Of a stretch of 64,000 nucleotides of DNA, positions 1,490 through 43,928 are shown one piece after another. The stretch is from the NCBI GenBank assembly GCA_028819565.1, contig JAPPLD010000027.1, positions 16,802 to 80,801 on the forward strand. Direction: 5' to 3'. The stretch is from Gammaproteobacteria bacterium (GTDB lineage: Bacteria; Pseudomonadota; Gammaproteobacteria; Poriferisulfidales; Poriferisulfidaceae). Each line of letters opens with the position of its first letter. Position 1 is the stretch's first letter. Under the pieces are notes generated by a model. It was not told where the DNA came from and did no database searches. It saw only the letters and a program-made list of their open reading frames with translations. The position numbers and the translations under genes are program-made.

Positions 1490-1502
1490 CAGAGGGGACG
1501 CC

Positions 1503-1805: not shown

Positions 1806-1808
1806 AGC

Positions 1809-2120
1809 ATGATCCCCGGCGAAATCCTCCCGGCCGACGGCTCGCTGACCCTCAACGAGGGCCGTCAGACCCTCACCCTGACCGTGGCCAACACCGGCGA
1901 CCGCCCCGTGCAGGTCGGCTCCCACTACCATTTCTTTGAAGTCAACTCGGCGCTTGACTTCGACCGCAATGCCGCACGCGGATACCGTCTCGACATCCCG
2001 GCCGGCACCGCCGTGCGCTTCGAGCCGGGGCAGAGCCGGGAAGTGACTCTAGTGCGCTACGCCGGCGCAGGCCAAGTGTACGGCTTCAATAGCGCCGTCA
2101 ACGGACCCCTGAAGGACTGA
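1809..2120 (+). CDS. ureB: urease subunit beta
   Basis: 103 aa, MIPGEI...[17 protein letters not shown] motif typical of UreB. Confidence 0.95.
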
Positions 2121-2123
2121 GCC

Positions 2124-3833: not shown

Positions 3834-4303
3834 TGCTGGCGCGTGCAACCACTGTCGCCTCGGCAAACGAATGGCCGGCCGAACGGCAGCGTGCGACGGT
3901 CACCCTGGACTACGACGGCCGCTACCGCCGCCGAATCCGGCTCGTCACCGACGAAGGGGACCCATTCCTCTTGGACCTCCCCCAAGCCGTACGCCTTGGC
4001 GAAGGTGATGGTTTGGTACTGGAAGACGGCGGATATGTGCGGGTCGTCGCAGCGGCGGAACCGGTTGCGGACCTGAGCTGCCGCGAACTCTCCGAAACCA
4101 CCCGGATCGCCTGGCACATCGGCAATCGCCACATTCCGATCCAGGTTCTTCCAGATGGCGCCTTGCGGATCCGGGACGACCACGTCATCGTCGAGATGGC
4201 CCGGCAACTGGGTGCGCAAGTTCACTGCCACCAAGCCCCCTTCTCCCCCGAGCCCGGCGCCTACGCCTCGCGCGGCGATGAACATCACGCCCATGAGCAC
4301 TGA
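3833..4303 (+). CDS. ureE: urease accessory protein UreE (nickel metallochaperone)
   Basis: ATG overlaps the ureC stop (tgATG). The C-terminal tail is His-rich (DEHHAHEH). The upstream in-frame extension of the 275-aa ORF is rejected. Confidence 0.85.
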   Translation: MLARATTVASANEWPAERQRATVTLDYDGRYRRRIRLVTDEGDPFLLDLPQAVRLGEGDGLVLEDGGYVRVVAAAEPVADLSCRELSETTRIAWHIGNRHIPIQVLPDGALRIRDDHVIVEMARQLGAQVHCHQAPFSPEPGAYASRGDEHHAHEH

Positions 4304-5003
4304 CGGCATCTCGGTCGGCGGCGCGCAGCTGGTTCGCCTGATGAACTGGCTGTCCCCTTCTTTCCCGGTCGGCGCCTACAGCTATTCGCACGGGATCGAG
4401 TACGCGGTGGAAACCGGCCTGATCCACGACCGGGACACCTTGCGCGACTGGATCTCCGAAGTCATCGCGGCCGGAACCGGGCGAGTCGACGCGGATCTGC
4501 ACCGTGCGGCCCATGAAGCGGTCCGAAACCGTGACGAAACCCTATTCATCTGGGCGCTGGAACATGGCGACGCGATGCGCGCCACCCGGGAACTCGGCGA
4601 GGAGACCGAGAACCAAGGCCAGGCATTCTTGACCGCAGTCGCTCGCCCCTGGCCGGCAACCGGGCTCGACTGGGCCCGAGAAAAGGCGGCGGAACAGCAA
4701 CGACCGATGGTCTATCCGGTGGCCGTCGGCGCCGTGGCGGCAGCGCAGGACATCCCGCTGGAACCCGCGCTGGTCGCTTATCTCCACGCGCTGGCCGCTA
4801 ACCTGGTGTCCGCCGGCATCCGGCTAATCCCCCTAGGACAGAGCGACGGTCAGCAGGCGCTGGCCGACCTGGAACCGGTCATCCTGGATGCGGTCGCACA
4901 GGCCCTGGAACGGGATCGAGAGGACATCGGACAGGCCGCCCTGATGGTGGACTGGGCCTCTGCCCGCCACGAAACCCAGTACACCCGCCTGTTCCGCTCA
5001 TGA
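4278..5003 (+). CDS. ureF: urease accessory protein UreF
   Basis: Contains the UreF-like core [21 protein letters not shown]. The start is uncertain (4278 or 4293) and overlaps the ureE 3' end. Confidence 0.8.
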
Positions 5004-5647
5004 GCACACCTTTCCGCGTCGGCATCGGCGGCCCGGTCGGCACCGGCAAGACCGCATTGATGGACGCCCTGTGCAAGCGGCTGCGCGATGACTACGACAT
5101 CGCAGCCATCACCAACGATATCTACACCGAGGAAGACGCCCAGTTCCTGACGCGTTCGGGGGCGCTGGCACCGGAGCGCATCCGCGGAGTCGAGACCGGC
5201 GGGTGCCCGCACACGGCCATCCGCGAGGATGCCTCCATGAATCTCGCGGCGGTCGGCGACATGGTGGCGCGTTTCCCGGACCTAGACATCGTGCTAATCG
5301 AGTCCGGCGGTGATAATCTCGCTGCCACCTTCTCCCCGGAACTCGCCGACCTCACCATCTACGTCATCGACGTCTCCGCTGGCGACAAGATCCCGCGCAA
5401 GGGCGGACCCGGCATCACACGTTCCGACCTGCTGGTCATCAACAAGACCGACCTCGCGCCGCTGGTCGGCGCCAGCCTGGAAGTGATGGAACGGGACTCT
5501 CGCCGCATGCGCGGGGAGCGGCCTTTCCTGTTCAGCAATCTGAAAGCCCAGGAGGGAGTCGGCGAGATCGTGGATTTCGTGCTGGCCTCCGGCGGATTCA
5601 CCACACAGGAACCTGCCGGCGGCGAAACCGATACATCATCCCACTGA
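5000..5647 (+). CDS. ureG: urease accessory GTPase UreG
   Basis: P-loop GPVGTGKT and the conserved CPH metal-binding motif. Confidence 0.95.
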
Positions 5648-5673
5648 GAAGAACTTTTGATTTGGAGAAACCC

Positions 5674-5832
5674 GTGAAACTCATACACCGAACCGTGATT
5701 CCCTTGTCCGCGCTGCTGTTCGCCCTGCCCGCATCCGGTCACGACACCGGAACCGTCCACGACCACGGGATCGGCTATCTCTTGCTGCTGGTGGCGCTGG
5801 TTGCGGGAGCCACGGCCCTGCTACGTCGGTAA
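5674..5832 (+). CDS. 52-aa signal-peptide/His-motif/TM mini-protein; possible truncated HupE/UreJ nickel permease remnant
   Basis: GTG start with GGAG RBS 7 nt upstream. Translation: MKLIHRTVIPLSALLFALPASGHDTGTVHDHGIGYLLLLVALVAGATALLRR. It sits where ureJ lies in ureDABCEFGJ-type operons. Confidence 0.3.
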   Translation: MKLIHRTVIPLSALLFALPASGHDTGTVHDHGIGYLLLLVALVAGATALLRR

Positions 5833-5963
5833 CGGCTTCTTACTGCCGGGTTCCCGCCGAATGAGCCCGGTAGCGGAAATGTCCACTCATCCTGTTTTGG
5901 CAAAGGCAAGAATCCCCGCGTTATTTTAGGGATCCGGCAAGATTCGGGTTTTCGGGCTCCGTC

Positions 5964-6155
5964 TCAGGACAAAAGCCATTTCGCCAAGAGGATTCCGATG
6001 CCGGCCAACGCGACGGCTCCGCTCATGGAGCCCGCCAGAAACCAGATCTTCAGGTCCTTCAGATCCTCTTTCGTGGAAACATGCTCCATCTGGGTTTCGA
6101 GCCTGACCAGCCTTTGCCGAACTTCGGTCTCGAAAGTCATGGACTCTGCCGTCAT
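5964..6155 (-). CDS. DUF1640-like coiled-coil protein with C-terminal TM anchor
   Basis: AGGAGG RBS 8 nt upstream of the ATG (MTAESMTFE...). C-terminal hydrophobic helix. Paralogous to the gene at 24385-24771. Confidence 0.45.
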   Translation of the reverse strand: MTAESMTFETEVRQRLVRLETQMEHVSTKEDLKDLKIWFLAGSMSGAVALAGIGILLAKWLLS

Positions 6156-6340
6156 GCGATCCTCCTGTGATCGTAGGAGGCATCCTATCATAGCGATTTC
6201 CAACCCGCGCAATGCTTTGAAAAGTCCTACAAAAGAAATTCCGTCTCCTTTGTTTCCTAGCACATCTAATTGATTTATAGAACTATTTATTGCCAACCTA
6301 AAAAGCAAGGCGACTTCTCGACCGCCTGCCCGAAATCGGT

Positions 6341-6356
6341 CTCGGCTATAGCCGAG
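6341..6356. terminator. perfect 16-bp palindrome CTCGGCTATAGCCGAG spanning the yejF stop codon (putative operon-end hairpin)
   Basis: Seen directly; extended imperfect arms cggt/accg. Confidence 0.3.
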
Positions 6357-7995
6357 GCACCGCCGACAGCAGTGTTCGAGTGTATTCGTGCTGCGGGTTC
6401 TGCAGGATCTCGACCGTGTCTCCCTGCTCGACGATCCGCCCCTCGTGCATGACCGCCATGCGGTGCGCCATCCAGGACACGACCGCGATGTTGTGCGTGA
6501 TGAACAGGTAGGTCAGGCCGTGTCGGTCCTGCAGATCCTGTAGCAGGTTCAGGATCTGGGCCTGAATGGTGACGTCCAACGCACTGGTCGGCTCGTCACA
6601 TACGATCAACCGCGGGTTGACCGCCAAGGCCCGGGCGATCGCGATGCGCTGACGCTGCCCGCCCGAGAATTCATGCGGGTAGCGGGTCTGGTGCTCGGGC
6701 TTCAGCCCGACCTGCAACAGTAATTCCTCGATCCGCTCGCGCCGCTCGACCGCATCTTGCGCCACGCCCAGGACCTGCATCCCCTCAGCGATGATGTCGC
6801 CGATGACCATGCGGGGGTTGAGGGACGAAAACGGGTCCTGGAAGACGATCTGCAGTTCCGACCGGAACGGAGCCATCTCGTGGGCTGAGCAATGGCTCAG
6901 GTCGTGCCCCCGGTAGTGAACGCTTCCCTGCGTGATCGGCAGCAAGCGGATCAGGCTCTTGCCGGTGGTCGTCTTGCCGCAGCCAGATTCCCCCACCAGG
7001 GCGAACGTCTCTCCTTCCCGCAAGGTGAACGACAGGCCGTCCACCGCCCGAACATGACCGACGACACGGCGGAATACGCCGCGACGGATCGGGAAATGGA
7101 TGCGCAGGTCCTCGACTTCCAGCAGAGGGTCGGAGCTTGGTCGCGAGGCCGGTTCGACCGCCTGTTCGTCGGAATCGGATCCGTTGCCGTGCAGCCGCAG
7201 TCCCCGCTTGGAGATGTTCGGCAGCGCCGCGAACAGGTTGCGACTGTATTCGTGCTGGGGATTCTCGAAAAATTCCCCTGCGGATTCTGCCTCCACGATC
7301 CTTCCATGCTGCATGATGGCAACCGCATCCGCCATGCTCTTCGCCACCGCCAAGTCGTGCGTGATGAACAGCATCGCCATGCCCAGGTCGCGCTGCAGTT
7401 CGCGCAGCAGCTCCAGCACCTGCGCCTGGATGGTGACGTCCAGCGCCGTGGTCGGCTCGTCCGCGATCAGCAGTTCGGGTTCCGCCGCCAGCGCCCCCGC
7501 GATCATCACCCGCTGCTTCATGCCGCCGGACAGTTGGTGCGGATACTCGTACAAGCGCCGCCGGGGCTCCGGGACACGCACCGCGTCGAGCAACTCCAGC
7601 GCGCGGGCCAGGCTTGCCTTCCGCGACAGCCCCCGGTGCCGGCGCAACGGCTCGCAGATCTGCTGACCCACCGTCATTACCGGGTTGAGCGACATCATCG
7701 GTTCCTGGAAGATCATGCCGATCGTGCCACCGCGAATCCCCCGCATCTGCACCTCCGGCAACTCCAGCAAATCCCGCCCATTCAGCCGGATTTCGCCGGT
7801 TTCGATTCGGGCCGCTTCCGGAAGCAGCCGCATCACGCTCAGCGCCGTCACCGACTTGCCGCTGCCGGACTCGCCGAGCAGGGCGAACGTGCCCTGTTTC
7901 GGGATGGAGAAGCTGACGTCCTCGACCGCCACCTCTCGGTCCGGTCCGGTACCGAACGCGATCTGCAGGTGGTTGACCTCAAGCAGCGTACTCAT
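6346..7995 (-). CDS. yejF: peptide ABC transporter ATP-binding protein with duplicated ATPase domains (YejF-like)
   Basis: Two Walker A/ABC-signature/Walker B sets (GESGSGKS...LSGGMKQR; GESGCGKTT...FSGGQRQR). Start taken at [10 protein letters not shown], overlapping the yejE stop. Confidence 0.85.
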
Positions 7996-9362
7996 CGCTT
8001 CACCCTCGGGTCGAAGGCATCGCGCACCGCATCCGACAGCAGGTTCGCGAACAATACCAGGGCAAACATGAACACGAACGAAGCCGTCAGCGACCACCAC
8101 ACCGGAGGCTCGCGCGACATCTCAAGCCGCGCACTGTTGATCATGTTCCCCCAGCTGTTCATGGACGGGTCAACCCCGATGTCGACATACGACAACACCG
8201 CCTCGGCCAGCACCAGGCCGCTGAAGTCCAGCACCACCGTGATCAGCACGATATGCATGACGTTCGGAAGGATGTGCCGCATCAGGATGCGCGGCCCCGA
8301 CACCCCGAATGCCACTGCGGCCTGGATGTATTCATGCTCCCGCAACTTGAGAGATTCGCCGCGCAACAGCCGGCAAAGCCCGGTCCAGCTGGTCAGGCCC
8401 AGGATCATGCACAGGAACAGCAACCGCAGGTCTGCACGCTCCGCCAGGCTCGCATACTCGTCGGCATGGGCGTTCAGGTAGACATGCAGGGACAGGATCG
8501 CCGCAGCGATCAGCAACACGCCGGGAATCGAGTTCAGCGTGATGTAGATGTACTGGATGACGTCGTCCACCCAACCCCGGTAGTAACCGGCCGTGATGCC
8601 AAGCGCAATCGCGAACGGCAACATGATCAGGGTCGTCAGGGTGCCGATCAGCACCCCGGTGCGGATGCTCTTCAGGGTCTGGTAAAGCACGTCTTCGCCG
8701 ACCTTGTCGGTGCCGAACACGTGGTAGGCCCCGGCCAACTGCGTGACGATCCCGATCAGCATCAGGATCAGCAACACGGTGACCGCTACGGACCGCCAGG
8801 GAATCGCGGCCTCTCCCTCTGCCCGGGGTTGCGCGCCCCGCAGCCGACGGGCCAGCCGGACGCCCAACAACAGGAGGGCCCAGACCCCCGCTCCCAACAA
8901 GGCTCCGCGCAGGATCCGGACCGTGATGTCCCAACCGCGTTCCTGTTCCGGGTCCGCAAGATGGGCACCCGCGTACTCGAGCCGGGGATAGACCCGGATC
9001 CGCCCCTGCGGCGTCTCCCGGGTCTCCTTGCTGTGCGCGTGATAGGCGAATGGCGCGGAGTAAGTCCGCTCAACCTGGGTACGCAAGGGCCCGGCCAAGA
9101 TGTCGAACACGCTCAAGATCTCGTTTGAATACTCCACCTGGGCGCCCGGCTGTTCCAGGCGCGGATGGAAATGCAGCGAATCCAGGATCGCGATGGCCGC
9201 GAAGAAACCCAGCGCCACCACCGACACCGCGCCGCCGCGCCGGGTCATGACAGATCGCCAGGCATGCCGCAGGTGCGGCGTACGCAGAACGAAACCCACG
9301 TACAGCGCCACCCCTGCCAGCAGCAGGTAGAGAAAGAAATCGGTCAGCAGGACGACCCACAT
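7992..9362 (-). CDS. yejE: ABC transporter permease (YejE/DppC-like), extended N-terminal region
   Basis: C-terminal DppC-type permease core. The chosen ATG overlaps the yejB stop (TGA/ATG). The 673-aa ORF N-terminus is rejected. Confidence 0.75.
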   Translation of the reverse strand: MWVVLLTDFFLYLLLAGVALYVGFVLRTPHLRHAWRSVMTRRGGAVSVVALGFFAAIAILDSLHFHPRLEQPGAQVEYSNEILSVFDILAGPLRTQVERTYSAPFAYHAHSKETRETPQGRIRVYPRLEYAGAHLADPEQERGWDITVRILRGALLGAGVWALLLLGVRLARRLRGAQPRAEGEAAIPWRSVAVTVLLILMLIGIVTQLAGAYHVFGTDKVGEDVLYQTLKSIRTGVLIGTLTTLIMLPFAIALGITAGYYRGWVDDVIQYIYITLNSIPGVLLIAAAILSLHVYLNAHADEYASLAERADLRLLFLCMILGLTSWTGLCRLLRGESLKLREHEYIQAAVAFGVSGPRILMRHILPNVMHIVLITVVLDFSGLVLAEAVLSYVDIGVDPSMNSWGNMINSARLEMSREPPVWWSLTASFVFMFALVLFANLLSDAVRDAFDPRVKR

Positions 9363-9364
9363 GG

Positions 9365-10342
9365 TCAGCGCAGGCGGATGCGGGGGTCCGCAAGAGTGTA
9401 GGAAATATCGGTCAGCAGCAGGCCCAGGATGTACAGCACCGTGCCGAGGAACACCATCGCCCGCACGATCGAGAAGTCCTGGCGTTGGATCGCGTCGATG
9501 GTGTAGCTGCCGAGCCCCGGAATGCCGAAGAAAGACTCGGTGATGAGGCTGCCCATGAACAGCAGCGGCAGGATCACGACTACACCGGTCAGGATCGGAA
9601 TCAGGGCGTTGCGCAGCACGTGCCGGAACAGGACCCACTGCTCGGACAGCCCCTTGGCGCGCGCCGTGCGCACGTAGTCCTTGGAGATCTCCTCCAGGAA
9701 CAGGGTTCGGTACCAGCGGGTGCCGGAGCCGATCCCGTAGATGACGCTGATGATGACCGGAAGGATCAGAAACTTCACCGCCTCGTACCCGGTGTCGTAG
9801 CCCGAGATGGGGACCAGCTGCAGCAGCTTGCCGACCAGGTATTGCCCGCCGATGATGTAGAACAGGCTGGAGACCGACATCAGGATCACGCACAGCACCA
9901 CCCCGCCCACGTCCAGGTAGGACGCACGGAAGAACGCCAGCATCAACGCCAGCGTGGCGTTCAGCAGCAACCCGAGTATCAGGCTCGGCACCGCGATCGC
10001 CAAGCTCGGCCACATGCGCTGGCGGATGTCGTGGCCGATGTTGCGGCCGCTGTCGGAATTGCCGAAGTCGAATACGAACAGGCGCACCGACTTGGTGTAG
10101 AAGATGGTATCGGTCAGGCTATCCAGTCCGGCCGCCTCCGGGTTGTACAAAAGCGGCTTGTCGTAGCCATGTTCCTGCTTCCATGCCTCCACCTGCTCCT
10201 GCGTGGTGTACTTGTCGCCCAAATGCAACCGGGCCACCTCTTCCGGCGAGTTGACCACGAAGAACAGCATGAACGTCAGCAGGTTGACCCCGATCAGGAT
10301 CGGGATTGCGTACAGTGCCCGGCGGATGATGTAGGCAATCAT
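9365..10342 (-). CDS. yejB: ABC transporter permease (YejB/DppB-like)
   Basis: MIAYIIRRALYAIPILIGVNLLTF... typical DppB N-terminus. Confidence 0.85.
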   Translation of the reverse strand: MIAYIIRRALYAIPILIGVNLLTFMLFFVVNSPEEVARLHLGDKYTTQEQVEAWKQEHGYDKPLLYNPEAAGLDSLTDTIFYTKSVRLFVFDFGNSDSGRNIGHDIRQRMWPSLAIAVPSLILGLLLNATLALMLAFFRASYLDVGGVVLCVILMSVSSLFYIIGGQYLVGKLLQLVPISGYDTGYEAVKFLILPVIISVIYGIGSGTRWYRTLFLEEISKDYVRTARAKGLSEQWVLFRHVLRNALIPILTGVVVILPLLFMGSLITESFFGIPGLGSYTIDAIQRQDFSIVRAMVFLGTVLYILGLLLTDISYTLADPRIRLR

Positions 10343-12495
10343 CGGCCGCGCTCCCGTTCACGACGGAGGAATCCGATCAGCGCCGGCAAGATCAGCAGTA
10401 CCAGAACGCCCAACCCTGCCCAGAGCGGCCAGACCGTCGGCCGGTTCCAGTCCTGGAGAGCCGCCGCGCGCGATTCGGTGTCGATGCGCCGGTACTTGAG
10501 CGTGTTGTAGGACATGGTGGTCGGCTTGTTGTTGTGCACCCACTGGTGGGACAGGATGTAGCTGACCGGGTGGAGGCCCCAGGACCAGGGAGCGTCGCGG
10601 CGGAGAATCTCCATCATCCGGTCGATGATCTGCTGGCGCCGCTCCCCGTTCGGAATGTTCTTCATCTGCGAGAACAGCGCATCGTATTCGGGGTTTTTGT
10701 AGTTGGCGGAATTCGGTCCGTTGGTATCGACCTGGGCATTGGGGCCGTACAGCAGGAACAGGAAGTTCTCCGGATCCGGGTAATCCGCATGCCAGCCCCA
10801 CTGGAAGATCTGTCCGGTGCCTTTGCGCATCTTCGCCCGGAAACGGTTGTAGTCCGTGGCGCGAATGACCAGTTGGATGTCGAGCTTGGCGAACTGCTTG
10901 CGCAACCAGTTCAGCGATGCCTTGGCATCCGGCCCGGCGCCGACCGCCTCGAAATACAGCACCAGCGGCTTTCCCGTCTCCTGGTCGATTCCGTTCTGGT
11001 AGCCTGCCCGACGCATCAGCTCCCGTGCCTCTTCGATGTTGCGCCGGACCGCCTTGCCATCCTCCCAGCGGTAGACATAGGGGTTGATGCCCGCCTCGCC
11101 TTCCCGGACTCCAAAAATCTGCGGCGGCAGCGGCCCCTGAGCTGGAATCCCGCGCCCGTTGGTGAAGATCGAGATGTTCTCCTCGTAGTCCACCGCGATG
11201 GAAATCGCGCGCCGCAGCAGCCGGCTGCGCTCACCGTATCCGCCCACGACCGGATCCAGCATGTTGAAGCCCATGTAGAAAACGGTCAGGTCGACCGCCG
11301 TGCGCAGCACGATCCCCTTCTCCTCCATCGCGTCGGTCAGCCCCACTTCCCCCCCGCCGCCATACTCGATGGCCTGATCGAAACTGTCCGAGCCAATTCC
11401 GGACAGGTCGTAGTAGCCCTGAAGGAACTTGCTCCAGCGCGGGATACTCTCCTTCTCCAGGCTGAAGACCGCCCGGTCGATGAACGGCATGGTGCGTCCC
11501 CGGTCGTCCAGGAATCCCTGCCTTTCGTCCCCCGGCTCCCCCTCGTCCGGGTAGGGCTGACCTCGGAAGTTCGGATTGCGCTCCAGCACCATCCGCAGGT
11601 TCGGATTGTTCTCGGTCAGCATGTAGGGGCCGGTGCCGATCGCGTACCAGTGCAACGTCAGGTTGCGCTGCGCCATGCCCGGCTGCTCGTGAAACACGTC
11701 CGCCTCCCACGGCATCGGCGCGAAAAACGGCATGGCCAGCCAGTAGATGAATTGGGGGTAGGTTCCCTTCAGTCGGACCCGGTAGCGGTATCGCGACAGC
11801 GGCTCCACGCCGGACATCGACAGGCCGCGCAGATCCATCGGGACGCCCTCCGTGTTCTGGATATGCGCCTGGAATTCGGCGAAACCCTCGACGTATTCCG
11901 CGATGATGCCGGCAATGGGGCAATGCCGCCGCGGATCGGCCAGCCGCTTGATCTGGTACACGAAATCCTCCGCCACCAGTTCACGGCTCCCGGTCTGCGT
12001 GAAATCCGCGAGCGCGTTGACCGACTCGAGATCCGCTTCGGCCAGATCGTGATAGCGGTAGCTGCCGTCCTCGCGGCGCGCCAGCGCCGGGTGCGGCTGG
12101 TAGAGAATCCCGGGCTTGATATCGACCCGGTACTCGGTATACGCCGCTTCCTCCGCCGGAACCCCGGGTGGAAGCTCGTTGCCCTCCTCATCCAGGTATA
12201 GGACTTCCGGCATGCGGGCCGCGGACAGGGGCATCAACTCGTAGGGACGCTTCAGGTAGTGGTAGGCCAGCGGCGGCTCGTAGATCTGCTGGATGAAACT
12301 GTACGAAGTCGTGGTGTAGGACCGCGCGGGGTCCATGAATTGGGGCCGGTCGCTGAACGAGGCATACAGCACCGACCCGGATCCCAGGTTCTCCCCGCGA
12401 GGGTCGTTCCAGGAATCCCCGCAACCTGCCAGCAGGACAAGTGCGGCGACACTCCCCCATAGACGGGACGGGCCGCAGCGGCGGATGAAGCGCAC
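10339..12495 (-). CDS. yejA: extracellular solute-binding protein family 5 (YejA-like), lipoprotein
   Basis: Large SBP_bac_5-like ORF. Likely GTG start giving MRFIRRCGPSRLWGSVAALVLLAGC, with a lipobox. Confidence 0.75.
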   Translation of the reverse strand: MRFIRRCGPSRLWGSVAALVLLAGCGDSWNDPRGENLGSGSVLYASFSDRPQFMDPARSYTTTSYSFIQQIYEPPLAYHYLKRPYELMPLSAARMPEVLYLDEEGNELPPGVPAEEAAYTEYRVDIKPGILYQPHPALARREDGSYRYHDLAEADLESVNALADFTQTGSRELVAEDFVYQIKRLADPRRHCPIAGIIAEYVEGFAEFQAHIQNTEGVPMDLRGLSMSGVEPLSRYRYRVRLKGTYPQFIYWLAMPFFAPMPWEADVFHEQPGMAQRNLTLHWYAIGTGPYMLTENNPNLRMVLERNPNFRGQPYPDEGEPGDERQGFLDDRGRTMPFIDRAVFSLEKESIPRWSKFLQGYYDLSGIGSDSFDQAIEYGGGGEVGLTDAMEEKGIVLRTAVDLTVFYMGFNMLDPVVGGYGERSRLLRRAISIAVDYEENISIFTNGRGIPAQGPLPPQIFGVREGEAGINPYVYRWEDGKAVRRNIEEARELMRRAGYQNGIDQETGKPLVLYFEAVGAGPDAKASLNWLRKQFAKLDIQLVIRATDYNRFRAKMRKGTGQIFQWGWHADYPDPENFLFLLYGPNAQVDTNGPNSANYKNPEYDALFSQMKNIPNGERRQQIIDRMMEILRRDAPWSWGLHPVSYILSHQWVHNNKPTTMSYNTLKYRRIDTESRAAALQDWNRPTVWPLWAGLGVLVLLILPALIGFLRRERERGR

Positions 12496-12568
12496 GGGAG
12501 TCGGGTTCGTTATAAAATGGATTGAGTTCATTTTAATCTACCCGCCAATCCGGCCGCCACTTGAAACC

Positions 12569-13357
12569 ATGGGATTCCTCGACGGCAAGAAAGCCTTGAT
12601 CACCGGCGTCGCGAGCAACCGCTCCATCGCGTGGGGCATTGCCGAGTGCATGCACGAGCAGGGGGCGGAACTGGCTCTCACCTACCAGAACGAAAAACTC
12701 AAATCCCGGATCGACCAGCTCGCCGAAGCCTGCGGCGGCTCGCTGACCCTGCCCTGCGACGTGGCCGAAGAGTCCCAGGTGGAAGAAACGTTTGCACGTT
12801 TGGCTGAACACTGGTCCCAGCTCGACATCCTGGTGCACTGCATCGCTTACGCGCCACGCGAGGCATTGGACGGAGACTTCTGCGAGAACACGTCGCGCGA
12901 TGCCTTCGCCGTGGCTCACGACATCAGCAGCTACAGCCTGACTTCCCTGGCCCGGGCGGCACGCCCGATGATGCGCGAGCATCCGTCCGCCGTGCTGGCG
13001 CTGACCTACCTCGGCTCCATGCGCAGCATGCCGAACTACAACGTGATGGGCCTCGCCAAGGCCAGCCTTGAGGCGAACGTGCGTTATCTGGCCTATTCCC
13101 TGGGTCCGGAGCAGATCCGGGTCAACGGGATTTCCGCCGGACCGATCAGGACCCTGGCCGCAGCCGGCATCGGGAATTTCCGCATGATGCTGGACCACGT
13201 GGCGGAAAACGCGCCGCTGCGCCGCAACGTCACGCCGCGGGATGTCGGCCATGCGGCCGCCTTCCTGTGCTCGGACCTGGCTGGCGGCATTACCGGCGAG
13301 ATCACCTATGTCGACGCCGGCTACAGCACCATTGGCATGACCGGCTTCGACGAATAA
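12569..13357 (+). CDS. fabI: enoyl-[acyl-carrier-protein] reductase (NADH) FabI
   Basis: MGFLDGKKALITGVASNRSIAWGIA... SDR-type FabI hallmark. Confidence 0.9.
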   Translation: MGFLDGKKALITGVASNRSIAWGIAECMHEQGAELALTYQNEKLKSRIDQLAEACGGSLTLPCDVAEESQVEETFARLAEHWSQLDILVHCIAYAPREALDGDFCENTSRDAFAVAHDISSYSLTSLARAARPMMREHPSAVLALTYLGSMRSMPNYNVMGLAKASLEANVRYLAYSLGPEQIRVNGISAGPIRTLAAAGIGNFRMMLDHVAENAPLRRNVTPRDVGHAAAFLCSDLAGGITGEITYVDAGYSTIGMTGFDE

Positions 13358-13521
13358 AGTCACACGGTACGTAAAAGCGCAAGCGACAAGCCTTCGGCAG
13401 ACCACCAGGTCTGTTTCCAAAAATCCTGCAGGGCATCGATAGGCGGTGGATGTGGTGTATCCTGTTGCAGGTTCACCACCATCGGCCACCGAGACGGCTG
13501 GAATCAGAAAACCAGGGAAAC

Positions 13522-14604
13522 ATGCACCGGGCTTCGTCACTCCTGCTGTTGACATTGATTGCGACGGGGATTTCGGGTTGCGACCCGAAGCCCACGCTGG
13601 AGATGTTTCGGTCCGGCGACCAGCCGTGTTACGACCGGTCCGTCCAAGCCCAAACTGCCGTGGTGGACAGCCACATCCACTTCCGCCCGTTTGGCGGTCC
13701 TCCGATCCCGTTCGAGGAAGTGATTTCGTATCTCGAGGAGACCGGAGTCCTGTTCGCCAATGTCTATGGCATTGGCCAGATGTTGCCCGTGACGTCCTCC
13801 TGCACCTATTACCTAGACTGTCCTGGCACGCCGGTGACGCCAACGCTGAAGAACGACTTCATCAATGCCGCCAGTGCGCTCATGTTTGCGTCCTCTGAGG
13901 TCCATCTGACGCTCTCGATGAGTTTCCCGGATCTGTTGAATCCGGAAACAATTCCTCCAGAGATGCAACTGCTGGAGGAAGAATACCCCGGCGTATTCAC
14001 CTGGATGGGCGAGGTCAACCTGGTGAAACAGGCTTTGTTTGCCAATGGACGGAAACCGGTTCCCATGGCCACGCTAGCCGAATGGGCCGCCTTCATGGCG
14101 ATCCTGCGGGAACGGGACATCCCGCTCGCGCTTCACGCCGACCTGGGCAACGACGAGGAACCGACCAAATACCTGCCCCTGCTGGAGGAAGTGCTGCGCC
14201 TGTATCCAGACAACGTGATCATCTGGATGCACATGGGGCTGTCGCGGGAACTGGTAAGGATGGATGTTGCCCAGCATATCCAAATCATGAGTTCTCTGCT
14301 AGACCGCTACCCGAAACTGATGATGGACATTTCTTGGCGAGTGATCGACGATGCCTACTTTTCCGTCCCGGAGCACCGGGTGCGTTATGTGTCATTTCTG
14401 AATGACTACTCGGAGCGCATTCTCCCGGGAACGGACTTCCTGGCCTCGGGGGACAAGGACTTCGATGTCTATCGTACGGAGTTGCAGGTCACCAGCAGAA
14501 TTCTTCATAGCCTGAACGACGTGGCCTTCCGAAACATCGCCCTGGGGCAGAATTATTTCCGACTGCTGAATCTGGACTACACCGCACCGCCGGTGTGCCA
14601 ATGA
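13522..14604 (+). CDS. putative amidohydrolase-family (TIM-barrel metal-dependent hydrolase) lipoprotein
   Basis: Signal peptide with lipobox (LIATGISGC). VDSHIHF metal-ligand-like motif. Assignment is weak. Confidence 0.4.
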   Translation: MHRASSLLLLTLIATGISGCDPKPTLEMFRSGDQPCYDRSVQAQTAVVDSHIHFRPFGGPPIPFEEVISYLEETGVLFANVYGIGQMLPVTSSCTYYLDCPGTPVTPTLKNDFINAASALMFASSEVHLTLSMSFPDLLNPETIPPEMQLLEEEYPGVFTWMGEVNLVKQALFANGRKPVPMATLAEWAAFMAILRERDIPLALHADLGNDEEPTKYLPLLEEVLRLYPDNVIIWMHMGLSRELVRMDVAQHIQIMSSLLDRYPKLMMDISWRVIDDAYFSVPEHRVRYVSFLNDYSERILPGTDFLASGDKDFDVYRTELQVTSRILHSLNDVAFRNIALGQNYFRLLNLDYTAPPVCQ

Positions 14605-14611
14605 GACTTTA

Positions 14612-15871
14612 TTAAGCTCGGACCGCCGTCTCCTCTCCTTCGCTGCGGGCGATCACCACCGCGCCACTCGAGTCGCCGAACACGTTGACGCTGGTGCGGC
14701 ACATGTCCAGCAACCGGTCGACAGCCAGGATCAGGCCAACCGCTTCCGCGGGCAGGCCCACCACTCCCAAGATCAGCACGATCGCGACCAGGCTCGCGGC
14801 CGGAATCCCGGCGACGCCAATGGAAGTGAGAAGCGCCAAGATCACCACCGTCGCCTGTTGCGCGGCACTCAGGTCAAGGCCGTAAGCCTGCGCCAGGAAT
14901 AGCACCGCCACGCATTCGTACAGGGCAGTGCCGTCCATGTTGACGGTAGCCCCGAGCGGCAGCACGAAACTGCCTACGCGATTGGAAACGCCCGCCCGGC
15001 TCCTGACACAGTCCAGCGTCACAGGCAGCGTCGCCGAGGACGAACTGGTGGAGAATGCGGTCAGTAGAGCAGCCAACATGGCACGAAAATGCCGCAGCGG
15101 CGAGATCCCGAATGCGCGCATGAGAAGCGGCAGGATCACGAACATGTGTAGCGCCAAGGCGCCCAGCACGGTAAAGAAGAAAGAAGCCAGCGGGATGAAC
15201 ACCTCGAGCCCCGAGGTGATGACCACCTTGCCCACCAAGGCGAACACCCCGATAGGGGCGAACAGCATGATCAGGTTGGTGATCTTCATCATCACTTCCT
15301 GCACGCCCTGCCAGAACGTATGCAGGGTGTCGCGCCCGCCCTTGAACACGCGCTCCATGAAGTAGCCAAACAGAAGGCTGAAGAAGATCAGGCCGAGCAT
15401 CTGCCCTTCCGCCGCAGCCGCCACGATGTTGGTAGGGATCATGCGCAGGAACACGCCGATTACGTCGGCGCCGCTGCGTCCGGCCACCTTCTCGGTGATC
15501 TGTCCCGTATCCTCGTGCAGGCCCAGCATCTCTTTCGCCGGAATCCCGTCGCCGGTCAGACCCGGCTGAATCAGATTGACCAGGAACAGCCCCGCGACGA
15601 TCGCCAGCGTGCTGGTCGTCAGATAGTACAAAAGCGTCTTGCCGCCCAACGCGCCCAGCTTGTCGGCTCCGAGGTTGCCGATCCCGATGATGATCGATGC
15701 GACGATCAGCGGCACGATGATCATCTTCAATGCGTTCAGGAACATCTTCCCGACGAAATCCAGCACGGGAACGACCGCGCTGCCCACCGCGCCGTCCGCA
15801 TCCAACAAAAGCCCAGCCAAAACGGCCAAAGCAAGCGCAATCAGGATTTGCCAATGTACTGCCAGACGCAT
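14612..15871 (-). CDS. dicarboxylate/amino acid:cation symporter (DAACS family, GltP/DctA-like)
   Basis: 419-aa polytopic protein with characteristic DAACS segments ([17 protein letters not shown]..., NMDGTALYE). Confidence 0.85.
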
Positions 15872-15910
15872 GGTGGGACCTCTCGTTCTAATGACTGTGA
15901 AGGCGGAGAC

Positions 15911-17773
15911 TTACTCCAGCCGGTCGGGATAGCGGGTGACTTCCGCCTGCGCGAGGAGTGCGGCCCGGAAGGCCTCCGCCTCGTCAAATCGCATCTTCGC
16001 GCGAAGATTCTCGCGATCCTCTTCTCGTATCTCCGCCGGGGGCGCCTCGTGCACGGCGTCTACGGCAACCAGTGCCACGCCGTCGTACAGGATCGCTACG
16101 CCGACAGACGGAGAACCCTCCGGCTGGGACAGGGAAAAGGCTTTCTCCCCGACCTGCCGCGGGACCTCCTCGGCATCCCGAGTCAACCCGGCACGCGTGA
16201 TCAGTTTGGCCCCATCGCTCTCGGCCAGGGCTTCGATATCGGGCTCCTCCCGTAACCGTTCCGTGAGTTCAGATGCATGCGCGAGAAGCGCGGTCCAGGC
16301 CGCCTGCCGCGCCAGATCGTTGCGGATCCGATCCGCCACCGCCTCAAGCGGGAGCGTCCGGGCTTCCTCGTATTCGTCGACCCGCACCACGATCGACCAG
16401 TCGACCTCCAGGTCGATCCGGTCGCTGTTCATCCCACCACGCAAGACTTCGTCGCTGCGCAAGGCCGTGAGAACCGCCTCTTGGGTCAACACTCCCGCCG
16501 GCAAAGCCGTCAGGGGGACCAGGTCGGTGTTCTGGATTTCCATTCCCAATTGTTCCGCAGCCGCTGCGAGGCTTTCCGGGTTCTCGTAGGTCAACAGGCC
16601 GAGTTCCTCCGCGGCGGCCGCATAGCGACCCTCCAGGTCGGCACGCCGGGCCTGTTCGACGACCTGGTCGAGTACTTCCTCAAGAGGCTGGAGCCGTGCC
16701 GGTTCCAGTTCCTGCACGTCCAGCAGGTAAACCCCCCGCTCCGTCTTGATCGGCTCACTCACTTTGCCGGGTTCCAGGGTGAACACCAGAGCCGCCAGAT
16801 CCTCCGGGAGATCCTCTTCCGCCACCCAGCCGATTTGCCCGCCCCGTGAGCGACTCAGTTCGTCCTGGGAGTGTTCCTGGGCCAACTCGGCGAAATCCTC
16901 TCCCTCCTGGAGGCGTTTGTAAAGCGCCTGTGCCTGTTCGTCCGATTCGGATCCCTCCAGGAAGATCTGCCGCAATTTGCGCAATTCCGGCGCCATGAAG
17001 TCCAGAGCGCGGGCTTCGTAATACTCCGCAACCGCCTCCTCACTCAACGGCGTCCCGTCTTCCATGCTGTCGAGGCGCAGTTCCAAGTACGACACCTTGA
17101 CGCGCTCCGGAGCCATGTAGCGGTCCTGCGACTCTTCGTAGTCTGCCTTGATTTCCTCCTCGGTCACCGCTTCCAGGTCGAAGAAGCGGTCTCCCTTGAC
17201 TTCGAAGTACCGGATGTCCCGGGTTTGATCCTTCAAGGCCTGGTATTCCCGCACTTCGGCATCCGTCGCCAGTGCCGAGTCCGTCAACATCTGCGCGATG
17301 ATCTGCGTGCGCATCTGTTCGCGCTGATCTGCCTCGAAACGGGCCGGCGTGATCCGGTTGACTTCCAGGATCTTCTGGTAGCGCTCCTCGTCGAAACGGC
17401 CGTCGACCCGGAACAGATCCATGGCCTGAATGCTTTGCGCCAGCTTCGCATCGGTGACGTCGAGCCGCTCACCGTCGAGATACTGGAACAGGAGCACCCG
17501 GTCGACCAACCCGTCCAGCACTCGCAGCTTCAGGCCGCGCTCCCACTGTTCGGAGTCCATTCCGGACGGGGGAGGATTATCGGAACGGGTGCGCTGGTAG
17601 ACCTCGTTGTAACGTTCGACGGGAACGGGATGGCCGTTGACTTCCGCCACGTCAGCACCGCCGCCAAAGCCCAGGTATTCGCTGATGCCCCAGAGCGCGA
17701 ACGGGATGCTGATGATCAGAACGATGAAGTAAGCCACCCATCCGGTGGCTCGCTCTCGAATCACATGCAACAT
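15911..17773 (-). CDS. ppiD: periplasmic chaperone PpiD (SurA-domain peptidyl-prolyl isomerase)
   Basis: N-terminal TM anchor then long periplasmic SurA-like region. Conserved position next to hupB-lon. Confidence 0.8.
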   Translation of the reverse strand: MLHVIRERATGWVAYFIVLIISIPFALWGISEYLGFGGGADVAEVNGHPVPVERYNEVYQRTRSDNPPPSGMDSEQWERGLKLRVLDGLVDRVLLFQYLDGERLDVTDAKLAQSIQAMDLFRVDGRFDEERYQKILEVNRITPARFEADQREQMRTQIIAQMLTDSALATDAEVREYQALKDQTRDIRYFEVKGDRFFDLEAVTEEEIKADYEESQDRYMAPERVKVSYLELRLDSMEDGTPLSEEAVAEYYEARALDFMAPELRKLRQIFLEGSESDEQAQALYKRLQEGEDFAELAQEHSQDELSRSRGGQIGWVAEEDLPEDLAALVFTLEPGKVSEPIKTERGVYLLDVQELEPARLQPLEEVLDQVVEQARRADLEGRYAAAAEELGLLTYENPESLAAAAEQLGMEIQNTDLVPLTALPAGVLTQEAVLTALRSDEVLRGGMNSDRIDLEVDWSIVVRVDEYEEARTLPLEAVADRIRNDLARQAAWTALLAHASELTERLREEPDIEALAESDGAKLITRAGLTRDAEEVPRQVGEKAFSLSQPEGSPSVGVAILYDGVALVAVDAVHEAPPAEIREEDRENLRAKMRFDEAEAFRAALLAQAEVTRYPDRLE

Positions 17774-38311: not shown

Positions 38312-41217
<2,906 letters not shown>

Positions 41218-41268: not shown

Positions 41269-41417
41269 AAGCTGGAATTTTCGGTTCGTACCAGAGTGAC
41301 GAACCCATCAGTTTCAATCCGCTGCCGGATCATAGCCTGCGCACAATTCTGTATGCTAACCTTTCTTAGCCCAGCGCTTTCCACAGCTCGTTGGTTTCCC
41401 TAGGGAGGAACTTCAAG

Positions 41418-42845
41418 ATGAAAGCCGGGGCTCAGAAAATCAACCCAGTCGCATTTTGTTTCCTCATACTGGCCGTCGTCGGTCTCAATGCGCACCCGGC
41501 CTTGGCGCAAACGAATGAAGCTTGTCCGCCAACTCCCAGGGTAGTTCCTATCGGCGGTCCAAGTGTGACCGCACAACAGGTGGAAGGTGGCGCCAGCCTC
41601 CAAACCTTTATGCAAGACGCGAGAACAGCTTTCAAGGCTGCGGCTGCAGCAAATCGGGCGACAGGGCTCCATTTTGGATGCCTTATCAGGCAAGAAGGGG
41701 GACCTTGGCGTTCCGGCTCTACTTACCTGGTGCAACTGGCACCAACCAGCAGGGTGTTTCTTCACGCAAAGAACATGGCGTTGTCGGGCAACCTCCTGAA
41801 TCGTGGGATTTTTGCAGCAATTCTTACTTCGCTGGGAGTCAACCCTCAGAACGCCACCTACCTTACCGACTTGAGAGGAAAAGCTAATGATGCGCCCGTC
41901 TCATTCAATGCGGACCCAGGGCGTTCCGGTTATGCCAGCGCCTACGTGGGGACCAGGGGTCCGATCATACTGCTCGCCGGATTCGACCTCAACGCATCCC
42001 ACTTGGCCCCCGAACAAATCGATCACGGTGATCCGACCATTCGCGCCCAAGACGTGGTGGACCGCAGAACCTTGAAGGCCTTCGTCGCGAACGCGATCGA
42101 CCAATTTAGAGAGTTTGGAAGAACCGGAGGTCGAGAAGGCCTTTCGAAAGCCAAGGTTGCCTTTCGGGATCCGAACGGGCCTTGGCGACACGGTTCCGTG
42201 TACTTATATATCTTGGATCTTTCCAGCAACATCATCTTATTTCACGGAGCATTCCCCGACAGATTCGAGGTTCGAACTTTGATTCCAACGCAGCGAGACG
42301 CTGTCACCGGAGAACTTATTCTGCCGCAAGTCCTCAACGCGGCCAAAAGCAGCCCGGAAGGTGGCTTCGTGCAGTATTACTTCGACGATCCCATTGACGA
42401 GGGCGATAGCGCCAACATCCCCAAGGTGGGATATGCCCGCGAGTTCGAAGCCAGGAGGGGGGCAGACAACAGTCTTGCCCGCTATATTATCGGCTCGGGC
42501 TTTTACCTAAGTGATCCTGGGGTGATCGCCCATCGCCAAACCTTAGCCATCAAGGCCATCCAGCCGCAGGTCATGCGGGCGATGACCGCCAGCACGGTCG
42601 ATGCGGTATCAAACCGGATCGAGCGGGCGATTTCCGACGACGCTTCGCAAACCCAAGGCCTCAACTTCGGCGGCGCCTCCAGTCTCTCCGACGCTCTGCT
42701 GGCACACGGGCAGTCGCTGGAGAACGGCACCTTCGACCTCGGCCAGCTACTCGCCGGGGCGTCCTTCACTCTGCCACTCAACGCGACGAGCACCGGCAAG
42801 CGGCTGTTCCGAAACGCAACGATCTGGGGAAACGGCGACTACTGA
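41418..42845 (+). CDS. secreted tandem sCache_2-like domain protein; N-terminal (passenger) part of an interrupted autotransporter
   Basis: GGAGG RBS. Signal peptide MKAGAQKINPVAFCFLILAVVGLNAHPALA. Two repeats match the sCache_2 pattern (YLYILDLSSNIILFHGAFPD...GGFVQYYFDDP...PKVGYAREFE...YIIGSGFY). Ends at an in-frame TGA at 42843-42845. Confidence 0.55.
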   Translation: MKAGAQKINPVAFCFLILAVVGLNAHPALAQTNEACPPTPRVVPIGGPSVTAQQVEGGASLQTFMQDARTAFKAAAAANRATGLHFGCLIRQEGGPWRSGSTYLVQLAPTSRVFLHAKNMALSGNLLNRGIFAAILTSLGVNPQNATYLTDLRGKANDAPVSFNADPGRSGYASAYVGTRGPIILLAGFDLNASHLAPEQIDHGDPTIRAQDVVDRRTLKAFVANAIDQFREFGRTGGREGLSKAKVAFRDPNGPWRHGSVYLYILDLSSNIILFHGAFPDRFEVRTLIPTQRDAVTGELILPQVLNAAKSSPEGGFVQYYFDDPIDEGDSANIPKVGYAREFEARRGADNSLARYIIGSGFYLSDPGVIAHRQTLAIKAIQPQVMRAMTASTVDAVSNRIERAISDDASQTQGLNFGGASSLSDALLAHGQSLENGTFDLGQLLAGASFTLPLNATSTGKRLFRNATIWGNGDY

Positions 42846-43928
42846 GACTTCGACGGCGGGAACAGCCAGACCTTGAACTACGAGGGCGACGTGACAAGCA
42901 TCAACTTCGGGATAGATTCCCGGGCGGGCGCGGACATGCTGGCTGGCTTCTCAGTGTCGCGAGCGGAAGCGGAAGTCGACTACGACGACATCAGTGGGGG
43001 CTCGGGCGAGTCCACAACCACGCTGATTAGCGTCAACCCGTACGTGGGCTGGCGGGTGGATCACTGCATCAATGTGTGGGCCACGGCCGGCTACGGCTGG
43101 GGCGATATTGAGATCAACGATACGGCGGCGGCCACGCAGGAGAGCGACCTTGAGCAACAGATGGTCGCAGCTGGCGTGAGCGGGCTGCTGGTAGACAACG
43201 ATGAAGTGATCCAAGGCGGCACGACCACGGTGCGAATCAAGGCCGAGGCCGCGTACACATGGGCCGACACCGATGGCGAGGGCGCCCTGAAGGGTCTGAC
43301 GCTGAATGCCAGCCGCTCACGGCTGCTGCTGGAAGCTGTCCACGAGCAGGCCCTTGAGTCGGGAGGCACTCTGAACTCGTCGCTGGAAGTCGGTGTGCGA
43401 CATGACGGCGGGGACGGAGAGGACGGCGAAGGCTTCGAGACTGGGGCCGGGCTGCGCTTTTCCGACCCGGCGACCGGAGTAACCTTCGAGGGCCGGGCGC
43501 GAGCCCTGCTCGGCCACAACGGCGACTACGACGAATGGGGCATCAGCGGGCTGGCGCGCATTGATCCGGGTGCGGATGGCGTCGGGCTTGCGGTCAGCAT
43601 AGAGCCCCAGTGGGGCCAGACGGCCAGCGGTGTCCAGCGAATGTGGGAGGCTGATGCCATCGGAATGACATTATCGGGCGACCGATCGCCGTTACACATG
43701 AACGCGCGGGTTGCGTATGGCATGATCGCCCTGTTGGGCGGGCGCCAAGGGGTGTTGACGCCGTACACCAACATGTCACTGTCCGGCGAAGGTTCACGAC
43801 GCCTGAGCATGGGCGGGCAGTTCAATGTCGGGACATCGGTGCAAATAAGTATGGAGATCCTGCACGACCAGCCGGCATATGGCGGCTCCGTCCATGGCAT
43901 CATGCTGCATAGCAGCTTCAACTGGTAA
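42846..43928 (+). CDS. autotransporter beta-barrel translocator domain, in frame with the upstream ORF
   Basis: Alternating amphipathic beta-strands, Gly/Asp-rich turns, and a terminal ...HSSFNW aromatic signature. No signal peptide of its own. Same frame as 41418-42845. Confidence 0.55.
   Translation, partial: DFDGGNSQTLNYEGDVTSINFGIDSRAGADMLAGFSVSRAEAEVDYDDISGGSGESTTTLISVNPYVGWRVDHCINVWATAGYGWGDIEINDTAAATQESDLEQQMVAAGVSGLLVDNDEVIQGGTTTVRIKAEAAYTWADTDGEGALKGLTLNASRSRLLLEAVHEQALESGGTLNSSLEVGVRHDGGDGEDGEGFETGAGLRFSDPATGVTFEGRARALLGHNGDYDEWGISGLARIDPGADGVGLAVSIEPQWGQTASGVQRMWEADAIGMTLSGDRSPLHMNARVAYGMIALLGGRQGVLTPYTNMSLSGEGSRRLSMGGQFNVGTSVQISMEILHDQPAYGGSVHGIMLHSSFNW

Follow-up and report, generated by a model that had tools for sequence, protein, structure and literature searches.

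The gene described here lies on the forward strand of the window, the 64,000-nucleotide stretch of DNA that was analysed, and its host is probably a 'Candidatus Porisulfidus'-like gammaproteobacterial sponge symbiont. A single reading frame extends over positions 41418-43928, and its sole interruption is a TGA at 42843-42845. The ORF upstream of this codon (41418-42845) starts with ATG, encodes 475 aa, and closes at the TGA. Past the TGA, the same frame is open through 43928 with no second stop on the way, and its product ends in ...SSFNW. The presence of one in-frame TGA in an otherwise continuous frame agrees with the original prediction. A Shine-Dalgarno-like GGGAGG, read directly from the sequence, is located at 41403-41408, 9 nt 5' of the ATG, and the equivalent Met is the start in homologs too. 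Residues 1-30 (41418-41507) appear by eye to form a Sec-type signal peptide, MKAGAQKINPVAFCFLILAVVGLNAHPALA followed by QT, with a basic n-region, a hydrophobic core, and an A-x-A motif. Cleavage is predicted after ALA and before Q, and the same n-h-c layout recurs across homologs. The order of genes (katG, the gene itself, fdhD, CNNM/CorC, and smpB) is the same in four related loci (L001-L004), and the window locus is the syntenic ortholog of the genes found there. No paralogs of the gene were found elsewhere in the window.

The N-terminal half carries two modules. Module 2 (residues ~216-363, 42063-42506) is a canonical sCache_2-like domain as judged from Pfam, Foldseek, and conservation. 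Its AlphaFold2 (AF2) model (pLDDT ~95) consists of a long helix at residues 216-250 followed by strands and helices, in keeping with the PAS-like alpha/beta fold of sCache_2 domains, and the best PDB matches of the window's own product in Foldseek were 2QHK/4EXO (target TM 0.69-0.70) and also TlpB 3UB8. The Pfam dCache_2 model PF08269 matches residues 256-366 (E 5.4e-7, 29.5 bits against a cut-off of 26.5 bits), and the match falls on the part of the model that is common to dCache_2 and sCache_2. The sCache_2 model PF17200 is matched above threshold by relatives of the protein (P0020, P0021, P0136, P0137, and P0159), and distant relatives match the NCBIfam MctS and CtpM sensor regions. NCBIfam gave no match for either half or for the intact ortholog P0001. 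Module 1 (residues ~52-190, 41571-41987; AF2 pLDDT ~95) is a degenerate sCache_2-like alpha/beta domain recognized by its homology to module 2. The two halves of the passenger align to each other in BLASTP (E 3e-7), and a profile-profile comparison built on 107 family members gave a probability of 95.6% (E 1.1e-8). On these alignments, modules 1 and 2 are homologous repeats, as had been proposed from the sequence of the window. In module 2, 49 of 150 columns are conserved at >=95% among 107 homologs. The conserved polar and aromatic residues W256, R257, H258, Y262, Y264, H276, Y320, K336, and R341 are compatible with a putative ligand pocket. Two near-invariant cysteines, Cys36 and Cys88, lie inside or adjoin module 1.

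The modules are followed by a long linker helix of 38 residues in the AF2 secondary structure (residues 367-404, 42516-42629). It contains a near-invariant motif, PQVMRAMTASTVDAVS, at 42564-42611, and we infer that it is a candidate pore-spanning helix. From the helix to the barrel runs a conserved ~60-aa segment (42630-42815); it includes several invariant residues and is modelled with a pLDDT below 50-60. The remaining region (residues ~467-836, 42816-43925, with the stop at 43926-43928) is an autotransporter-type beta-barrel. The C-terminal half matches Pfam Autotransporter PF03797 with an E of 1.5e-9 and 38.4 bits (cut-off 26 bits), an alignment that covers model positions 1-212 only, of 255. 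Thus both halves score above Pfam thresholds in the HMM searches that the original prediction had suggested, and its assignment of 42846-43928 to an autotransporter barrel holds. The end of the product, ...HSSFNW, provides the terminal aromatic residue of a BAM beta-signal, and the W is conserved in >=90% of homologs. The AF2 model of P0001 has 18 DSSP strands in a barrel region of ~368 aa, which exceeds a classical 12-strand beta-domain by ~100 aa. The region may thus be a barrel of autotransporter origin whose strands number more than 12. An internal duplication as the source of the long barrel was not supported (hhalign probability 1.8%), and a search of the family profile against all PDB sequences returned nothing meaningful.

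The gene belongs to a large family. Its homologs number more than 1,200, most of them fusions of about 840 aa with no interruption, and in the fetched loci 68 copies were counted that are intact over their full length. In other words, the uninterrupted fusion that was to be looked for is the rule. The best-matching genomes are all MAGs; the recognizable genome names are mostly sponge-microbiome bins and represent ~8 phyla. Often, several family copies occur in one genome. Identity between phyla reaches up to 63-76%. In sponge-microbiome MAGs, gammaproteobacterial members share 45-57% identity with those of Cyanobacteria, Nitrospirales, Gemmatimonadota, and Acidobacteriota. There are signs of exchange of the family between phyla. 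No homologs were found among 72,556 plasmid records. One protein, P0112, was found in identical form on 16 contigs; its mobility is unproven, as three places were compared and a single true breakpoint was definable. The double-Cache unit also appears in other contexts: as arrays in which 2-7 units, with Big_2 spacers, precede the barrel, joined to a T9SS sorting domain (P0136), and as a Tat lipoprotein (P0252). No account of the family emerged from a literature search that covered Cache and autotransporter (PF03797) proteins, sponges, and Porisulfidus; its members are already in databases under generic names. The architecture had been predicted to be unusual; it is not rare in the habitat of this organism, however, being widespread in sponge-microbiome MAGs.

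How would the intact protein work? The reading that we favor, with a probability of about 0.8, is that the gene encodes a single-gene, type Va-like autotransporter with a double sCache_2-like passenger, and that this copy was inactivated by a C>T change. The intact protein (~838 aa) would consist, in order, of the Sec signal peptide, degenerate module 1, canonical module 2, the helix, the ~60-aa segment, and the barrel. It would be exported into the periplasm via Sec, BAM would help the barrel to enter the outer membrane, and the linker would thread the barrel and thereby place the double-Cache unit on the cell surface. There, the displayed unit would bind a small ligand from the sponge environment, probably a metabolite of the carboxylate type or a similar one, or a matrix moiety. 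Surface display is indicated by the arrays with Big_2 spacers, the T9SS tail, and the Tat lipoprotein. The domain identities, the mutation and its recurrence across assemblies, the synteny, and the family distribution are demonstrated, whereas surface display, ligand binding, and the biological role are inferred. The protein may act as a receptor, an adhesin, or a capture device; as it carries no output domain, it would not be a signalling sensor. No conserved partner genes were found beside family members, which is expected of a self-sufficient autotransporter. In the window, a single C>T transition at the Arg codon 476 (CGA) created TGA in the first barrel strand.

What does the TGA represent? 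Codon 476 (42843-42845) carries a genuine nonsense mutation, from CGA to TGA. The same site is CGA in the syntenic relatives L002, L003, and L006 and CGC in L004. Arg occupies the column in 18 of 19 aligned homologs, and the column tolerates Arg or Leu. An error of sequencing or assembly in a gene that is intact in the organism might be entertained because related long-read contigs sometimes carry likely assembly indels, such as in L002, a 7x contig where ychF is split. However, the lesion here is a substitution rather than a homopolymer indel, and it is common to the window and L001 (a 143x contig ~28 SNPs away), which are not identical assemblies. It recurs on an Illumina scaffold, ROBB21-1_SAMN13943215, as well as in the independent Logan assembly of SRR10996925. 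Furthermore, the truncated form exists as three NCBI MAG proteins, and all five members of the P0022 cluster end in ...WGNGDY. Because the same stop is carried by at least five assemblies from different platforms, a sequencing error is excluded for practical purposes and has only a minute probability. Decoding of the TGA into a full-length protein, by selenocysteine insertion, reassignment to Trp or Gly, or programmed readthrough, is very improbable, if a little less so. UGA is the leakiest stop codon, the column tolerates either Arg or Leu, and fdhD adjoins the gene, so that the genome may encode a formate dehydrogenase, an enzyme that is often a selenoprotein. Against this, 43 of the 65 long ORFs in the window end in TGA, in line with the standard genetic code, and the site is Arg, not Cys, in homologs, being simply CGA in the closest relatives. 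No tRNA-Sec was found within the window, no SECIS-like fold or stable hairpin is present 3' of the TGA (z 0.34), and no Rfam element was found. Recoding is therefore unsupported by these searches, and low-level UGA readthrough may occur at codon 476.

The window gene is a young nonsense pseudogene that is fixed in one sub-lineage. It is considered young because decay is minimal: of 120 near-invariant positions, it departs from the family at just 2. Among the explanations offered by the original prediction for the TGA, a recent pseudogene stands, whereas a sequencing error fails on the recurrence of the stop in assemblies and a separate second gene fails because a leaderless barrel is inert. 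The earliest in-frame starts past the stop are TTG at 42873 and GTG at 42891, and their products would be without a leader and with strand 1 incomplete. The barrel half is dead, an inert by-product of the stop and not a designed second gene, and at most a soluble periplasmic 475-aa remnant is possible. Downstream of the stop, the ratio of nonsynonymous to synonymous changes was 8:9, compared to 5:27 in intact sister lineages (Fisher p 0.04; p = 0.07 once the nonsense change is left out), a weak hint of relaxed constraint. A decay test on the SNPs within the gene between the window and L001 (5:2 nonsynonymous to synonymous) was dropped; the flanking housekeeping genes gave 5:3 and the divergence is shallow. 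One may ask whether the truncation is tolerated or even useful, so that the 475-aa product is a functional periplasmic double-Cache binding protein and the gene is remodelled rather than dead. The N-terminal ORF retains its RBS, signal peptide, and two modules with almost no decay, the TGA allele is fixed in several samples, and barrel-less double-Cache proteins exist elsewhere, namely the Tat lipoprotein P0252 and P0020 with four units. But the truncated product has no anchor, stops in barrel strand 1, and carries the helix and the ~60-aa segment, both of which model poorly in isolation. In related lineages, moreover, the orthologous gene is broken at other sites by different lesions, a stop at codon 53 (L007) and frameshifts (L003 and L008). 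Because related lineages are broken differently, the pattern looks like gene loss and not like selection for one truncated form, and remodelling is an unlikely explanation. A further alternative concerns the intact family: it would not be a true autotransporter at all, and the Cache unit would be a periplasmic ligand sensor whose enlarged barrel forms a gated outer-membrane channel or anchor, with the helix and the ~60-aa segment as its plug. The 18 modelled strands in the ~368-aa region, the near-invariant helix motif, the conserved segment ahead of the barrel, and the restriction of the PF03797 alignment to part of the model are all in favor of it. So is the near-invariant C36/C88 pair. Disulfide loops are subject to limits in type Va secretion, and this pair, spaced 52 residues apart, would sit uneasily with the classical autotransporter route once periplasmic oxidation had joined it. 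We regard the channel model as quite unlikely.

Overall, the interpretation put forward in the original prediction is supported, its four suggested checks all having borne it out, and the interest lies in the intact family rather than in the broken copy of the window. The window copy is chiefly of value because it gives one symbiont lineage a natural knockout. To our knowledge, the mutual recognition and attachment of sponges and their very diverse, mainly uncultured symbionts are largely unexplained, and attention so far has been on eukaryote-like repeat proteins. The family is a concrete candidate for a shared host-interaction device in sponge symbionts. A tentative extension, which we consider possible but rather doubtful, is that the family is a sponge symbiosis factor: a surface receptor for small molecules or matrix, built from Cache domains, that recognizes a host compound, has been exchanged among at least eight phyla, and is mounted on the recipient's own export device, be it a T9SS tail, a lipid anchor, or the barrel of an autotransporter. 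If this were true, the losses that have struck the Porisulfidus clade, with its reduced genomes, repeatedly and independently would reflect host-specific selection, for example, escape from recognition. Type V secretion would gain a passenger class not seen before and possibly a barrel of non-canonical size. For Cache biology, it would be an example of the fold being employed outside signal transduction.

The closest points of comparison among autotransporters are EstA of Pseudomonas aeruginosa, a full-length autotransporter (PDB 3KVN), and AaaA (PDB 9OQA). Each has an enzyme as its passenger, a GDSL esterase in EstA and an aminopeptidase in AaaA, whereas two sCache_2-like modules occupy this position here. 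Furthermore, the barrel region is ~100 aa longer than in EstA and AaaA, and the ~60-aa segment parts the helix from the barrel. AIDA-I (4MEE), Hbp (3AEH), NalP (1UYO), EspP, and BrkA combine beta-helical adhesin or protease passengers with 12-strand barrels. Compared to such classical translocators, the model here has 18 beta segments, and sequence comparison detects no PDB chain; classical autotransporters are also without the conserved ~60-aa segment found here between helix and barrel.

Surface or attachment proteins with cadherin and fibronectin III domains are reported to be enriched in sponge symbionts and to have been laterally transferred (Robbins et al. 2021, PMC8163846). The present family has in common with them its occurrence in sponge-microbiome MAGs of many phyla and the signs of inter-phylum exchange. 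However, those proteins are eukaryote-like adhesion repeats, while a bacterial small-molecule-binding fold is used here; the words 'autotransporter' and 'Cache' occur 0 times in that paper. The fold itself is that of the Vibrio parahaemolyticus MCP (2QHK/4EXO) and Helicobacter pylori TlpB (3UB8), with a target TM of 0.61-0.70, and module 2 has kept the sCache_2 sequence motif of chemoreceptor and kinase sensors. In those inner-membrane signalling proteins, sCache_2 sits between two transmembrane helices and drives an output domain. Module 2 shares their fold and ancestry, yet it is no signal-transduction sensor: unlike the sCache_2 sensors, the family has no TM2 or output domain, and its Cache unit is duplicated and joined to an outer-membrane export and anchor device.

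The gene at window positions 41418-43928 (plus strand) was originally predicted to be one frame interrupted by a lone in-frame TGA, and this is how it reads: 837 codons in a single frame, with one internal stop (TGA, 42843-42845) and a C-terminal SSFNW closed by a stop at 43928. Upstream of its ATG at 41418 lies GGGAGG (41403-41408), and this ATG corresponds to the start Met of the homologs. Residues 1-30 form a putative Sec-like signal peptide, recognized by eye from a basic n-region, a hydrophobic core, and ALA/Q. The G+C content of the window is 60.7%. The standard genetic code holds, as 43 of the window's 65 long ORFs close with TGA.

What does the internal TGA represent? The options proposed were a recent pseudogene, a sequencing error, and two separate products. 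A sequencing error is ruled out because the stop is also present in L001 (a relative's 1.85-Mb contig, 143x, with ~28 SNPs and one indel against the window over 13.4 kb), on the Illumina scaffold ROBB21-1_SAMN13943215, in an independent Logan assembly of SRR10996925, and in three NCBI MAG proteins. The scaffold and the Logan assembly encode the exact window product, and each of the five proteins in the 90% cluster has WGNGDY as its C-terminus. The window and L001 differ by a one-base indel at window 46221, between the CNNM/CorC gene and smpB. The codon at the TGA position is CGA in the syntenic relatives L002, L003, and L006 (Ca. Porisulfidus sp. TsSOB) and CGC in L004, and the column holds Arg in 18 of the 19 homologs of a 20-sequence alignment (Leu in one). 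In other words, one C>T transition produced the TGA, which falls within the first barrel strand, between TIWGNGDY and DFDGG. Recoding is unsupported, as the homologs have Arg, not Cys, at the site; no tRNA-Sec was found within the window, no stable hairpin 3' of the TGA (z 0.34), and no Rfam match. Two separate products fail as well, because the barrel half lacks a leader: products of the first in-frame starts 3' of the TGA (TTG 42873, GTG 42891) would be leaderless and could not reach the outer membrane. The recent pseudogene is the option that stands.

Loss of this gene is not confined to the window. Four related genomes share the gene order HTH, ychF, pth, L25, 141-aa ORF, katG, the gene, fdhD, CNNM/CorC, and smpB. 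Within the Porisulfidus clade, taken as ≥75% identity, L002, L004, L005, and L006 carry an intact copy, and four of eight lineages carry a broken one, each with a different lesion: the premature TGA (window and L001), frameshifts in L003 (5334-7854) and L008 (127-2636), and, in L007 (4001-6505), a stop at codon 53. These different lesions suggest recurrent loss in a reduced-genome symbiont. Beyond the clade, only four copies (L023, L052, L054, and L080) carry a clear stop or frameshift; across all fetched loci, 68 full-length copies are intact. The ychF gene, intact in the window, L001, and L004, falls into two ORFs of 43 and 324 aa in L002 (299-1391; 7x contig), probably because of an assembly indel, which advises caution on frameshifts in low-coverage long-read contigs.

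The window lesion appears to be young. Lineage-specific changes 3' of the stop number 8 nonsynonymous to 9 synonymous in the window, against 5 to 27 in L002 and L006, the sisters with an intact gene (Fisher p = 0.04, rising to 0.07 once the nonsense change is left out). The difference weakly hints that constraint relaxed after the stop, as would fit a young pseudogene. The ratio of nonsynonymous to synonymous SNPs between the window and L001 was uninformative as a decay test. dN/dS is higher in the passenger (0.41-0.49) than in the barrel (0.20-0.26) and far lower in flanking genes (0.02-0.10), the smpB values being invalid owing to the indel at 46221. The conserved 141-aa ORF between the L25 gene and katG (window 38312-38737; L001 2895-3320), which has no Pfam match, shows 0.23-0.30, comparatively high against its neighbors' 0.02-0.10. 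Only 2 of 120 near-invariant family positions are broken in the window lineage. A functional periplasmic remnant in this lineage is improbable. The window copy is an ordinary young pseudogene.

The passenger was predicted to hold two tandem sCache_2-like domains, and several lines of evidence agree on this. The N-terminal half matches Pfam dCache_2 (PF08269) at residues 256-366 (E 5.4e-7, 29.5 bits, cut-off 26.5), and relatives match PF17200 sCache_2 directly; NCBIfam gave no match for either half of the gene. The passenger is an internal repeat by BLASTP (E 3e-7), and hhalign of module 1 against module 2 (107 homologs) gave a probability of 95.6% (E 1.1e-8). An AlphaFold2 model of the window's 475-aa product, built on 108 sequences (mean pLDDT 83; ~95 across residues 40-330), has two alpha/beta modules and, after both, a 38-residue helix; in each module a long N-terminal helix leads into a strand-helix-strand core. 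Its top Foldseek match in the PDB is the sCache_2 sensor domain of a Vibrio parahaemolyticus chemoreceptor (2QHK/4EXO, target TM 0.69-0.70), followed by H. pylori TlpB (3UB8, 0.61). Module 2 is the canonical one, with 49 of 150 columns at least 95% conserved, and module 1 is degenerate, with 23 of 135.

A read-through query retrieved more than 1,236 homologs, mostly of 830-875 aa and mostly intact; where named, they carry only 'autotransporter domain-containing protein'. An exhaustive passenger-only phmmer search of 1.84 billion cluster representatives gave only 443 matches at E ≤ 0.001, in several architectures. The double-Cache unit precedes a barrel once (~840 aa), twice (P0021), or at least three times (P0023, N-terminally incomplete), and P0137, P0159, and P0134 join five to seven canonical sCache_2 domains to Big_2 spacers and a barrel. 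P0030 has three units and a Big_2 domain with no Pfam barrel match, and P0020 has four units without a barrel. P0136 ends two units with a T9SS type A sorting domain (residues 692-766; TIGR04183, 32.7 bits, cut-off 23; PF18962), and P0252 is a one-unit lipoprotein with a Tat signal (residues 6-29).

When 185,579 species were scanned, each represented by one genome, 216 family loci emerged. Among the best 80 of these, all are MAGs, recognizable record names are mostly sponge-associated, including Ca. Porisulfidus (93% identity to the window), Ca. Poriferihabitaceae, and Ca. Synechococcus spongiarum, and some are COS, RHO, IRC, and SB bins. These bins stem from work on demosponges by Robbins et al. 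2021 (PMC8163846). The labels of the best 80, which may be imprecise and include misbinned contigs, span Gamma- and Alphaproteobacteria, Nitrospirales, Binatia/'Deltaproteobacteria'/Thermodesulfobacteriota, Gemmatimonadota, Acidobacteriota, Cyanobacteria, and, doubtfully, Chloroflexota. Nearest-neighbor identity between phyla reaches 63-76% (Arenicellales-Alphaproteobacteria 76%, S. spongiarum-Alphaproteobacteria 65%, Vicinamibacteria-Palauibacter 69%), whereas syntenic orthologs within the Porisulfidus clade are just 75-83% identical, which argues for transfer between phyla. PLSDB plasmids carried no family member, and the neighborhoods compared held no conserved partner gene.

Many genomes have several copies, some in tandem. 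In L087, a 2.6-Mb circular Nitrospirales contig, two paralogs (1-17081) flank a hybrid GAF/PAS histidine kinase-response regulator and adjoin large Cadherin-like/Calx-beta and CARDB proteins, a surface-protein gene cluster. Two paralogs in L088 (4678-10511; 856 and 836 aa) have only a HigB-like toxin/HTH antitoxin pair between them. An identical 851-aa protein, P0112, occurs on 16 contigs. In three places (L089 1-5516, L090 1-5111, L091 6298-11218) it sits within a shared block that extends over at least 5.1 kb and is 99.96-100% identical. L089 and L090 part directly right of the block, where L090 runs into rve integrase and serine-recombinase genes. The P0112 gene is bracketed by a ~409-bp direct repeat (88% identical) and followed by a conserved 64-aa ORF. 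The block is possibly a mobile cassette.

The original prediction of a Cache-passenger autotransporter broken by a TGA holds in both observation and interpretation. Its family is one of undescribed Cache-passenger autotransporters, apparently specific to the sponge microbiome; our literature search found no paper describing it, and it merits experimental follow-up. Its ligand, its surface exposure, and its biological role are inferred. Could the Cache modules instead be a periplasmic sensor, or the barrel a gated channel? A conserved Cys36/Cys88 pair, an enlarged barrel, and an unusually invariant helix motif speak for such readings, whose probability is low; the presence of the double-Cache unit on three surface-targeting devices and in bead-like arrays is the best available argument that it would work outside the cell.

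How, then, does this Cache-passenger autotransporter compare with known ones? The C-terminal half matches Pfam Autotransporter (PF03797; E 1.5e-9, 38.4 bits, cut-off 26). Three features depart from the textbook: the length of the barrel region, its partial Pfam match, and a conserved, poorly modelled segment of ~60 aa between the helix and barrel strand 1. The PF03797 alignment stops at or before model position 212 of 255 in all matches. The model of P0001, an intact ortholog (838 aa, 90% identical; 107 sequences, pLDDT 77, pTM 0.68), has a barrel region of ~368 aa with 18 DSSP strands; the closed barrel itself may have a different number. Internal duplication is not supported by hhalign as the source of the extra length. 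In the passenger, the near-invariant C36 (41523-41525) and C88 (41679-41681) lie 52 residues apart, and relatives with several double-Cache units have such a pair in each of them. For a classical autotransporter passenger, a disulfide loop spanning 52 residues is unusual.
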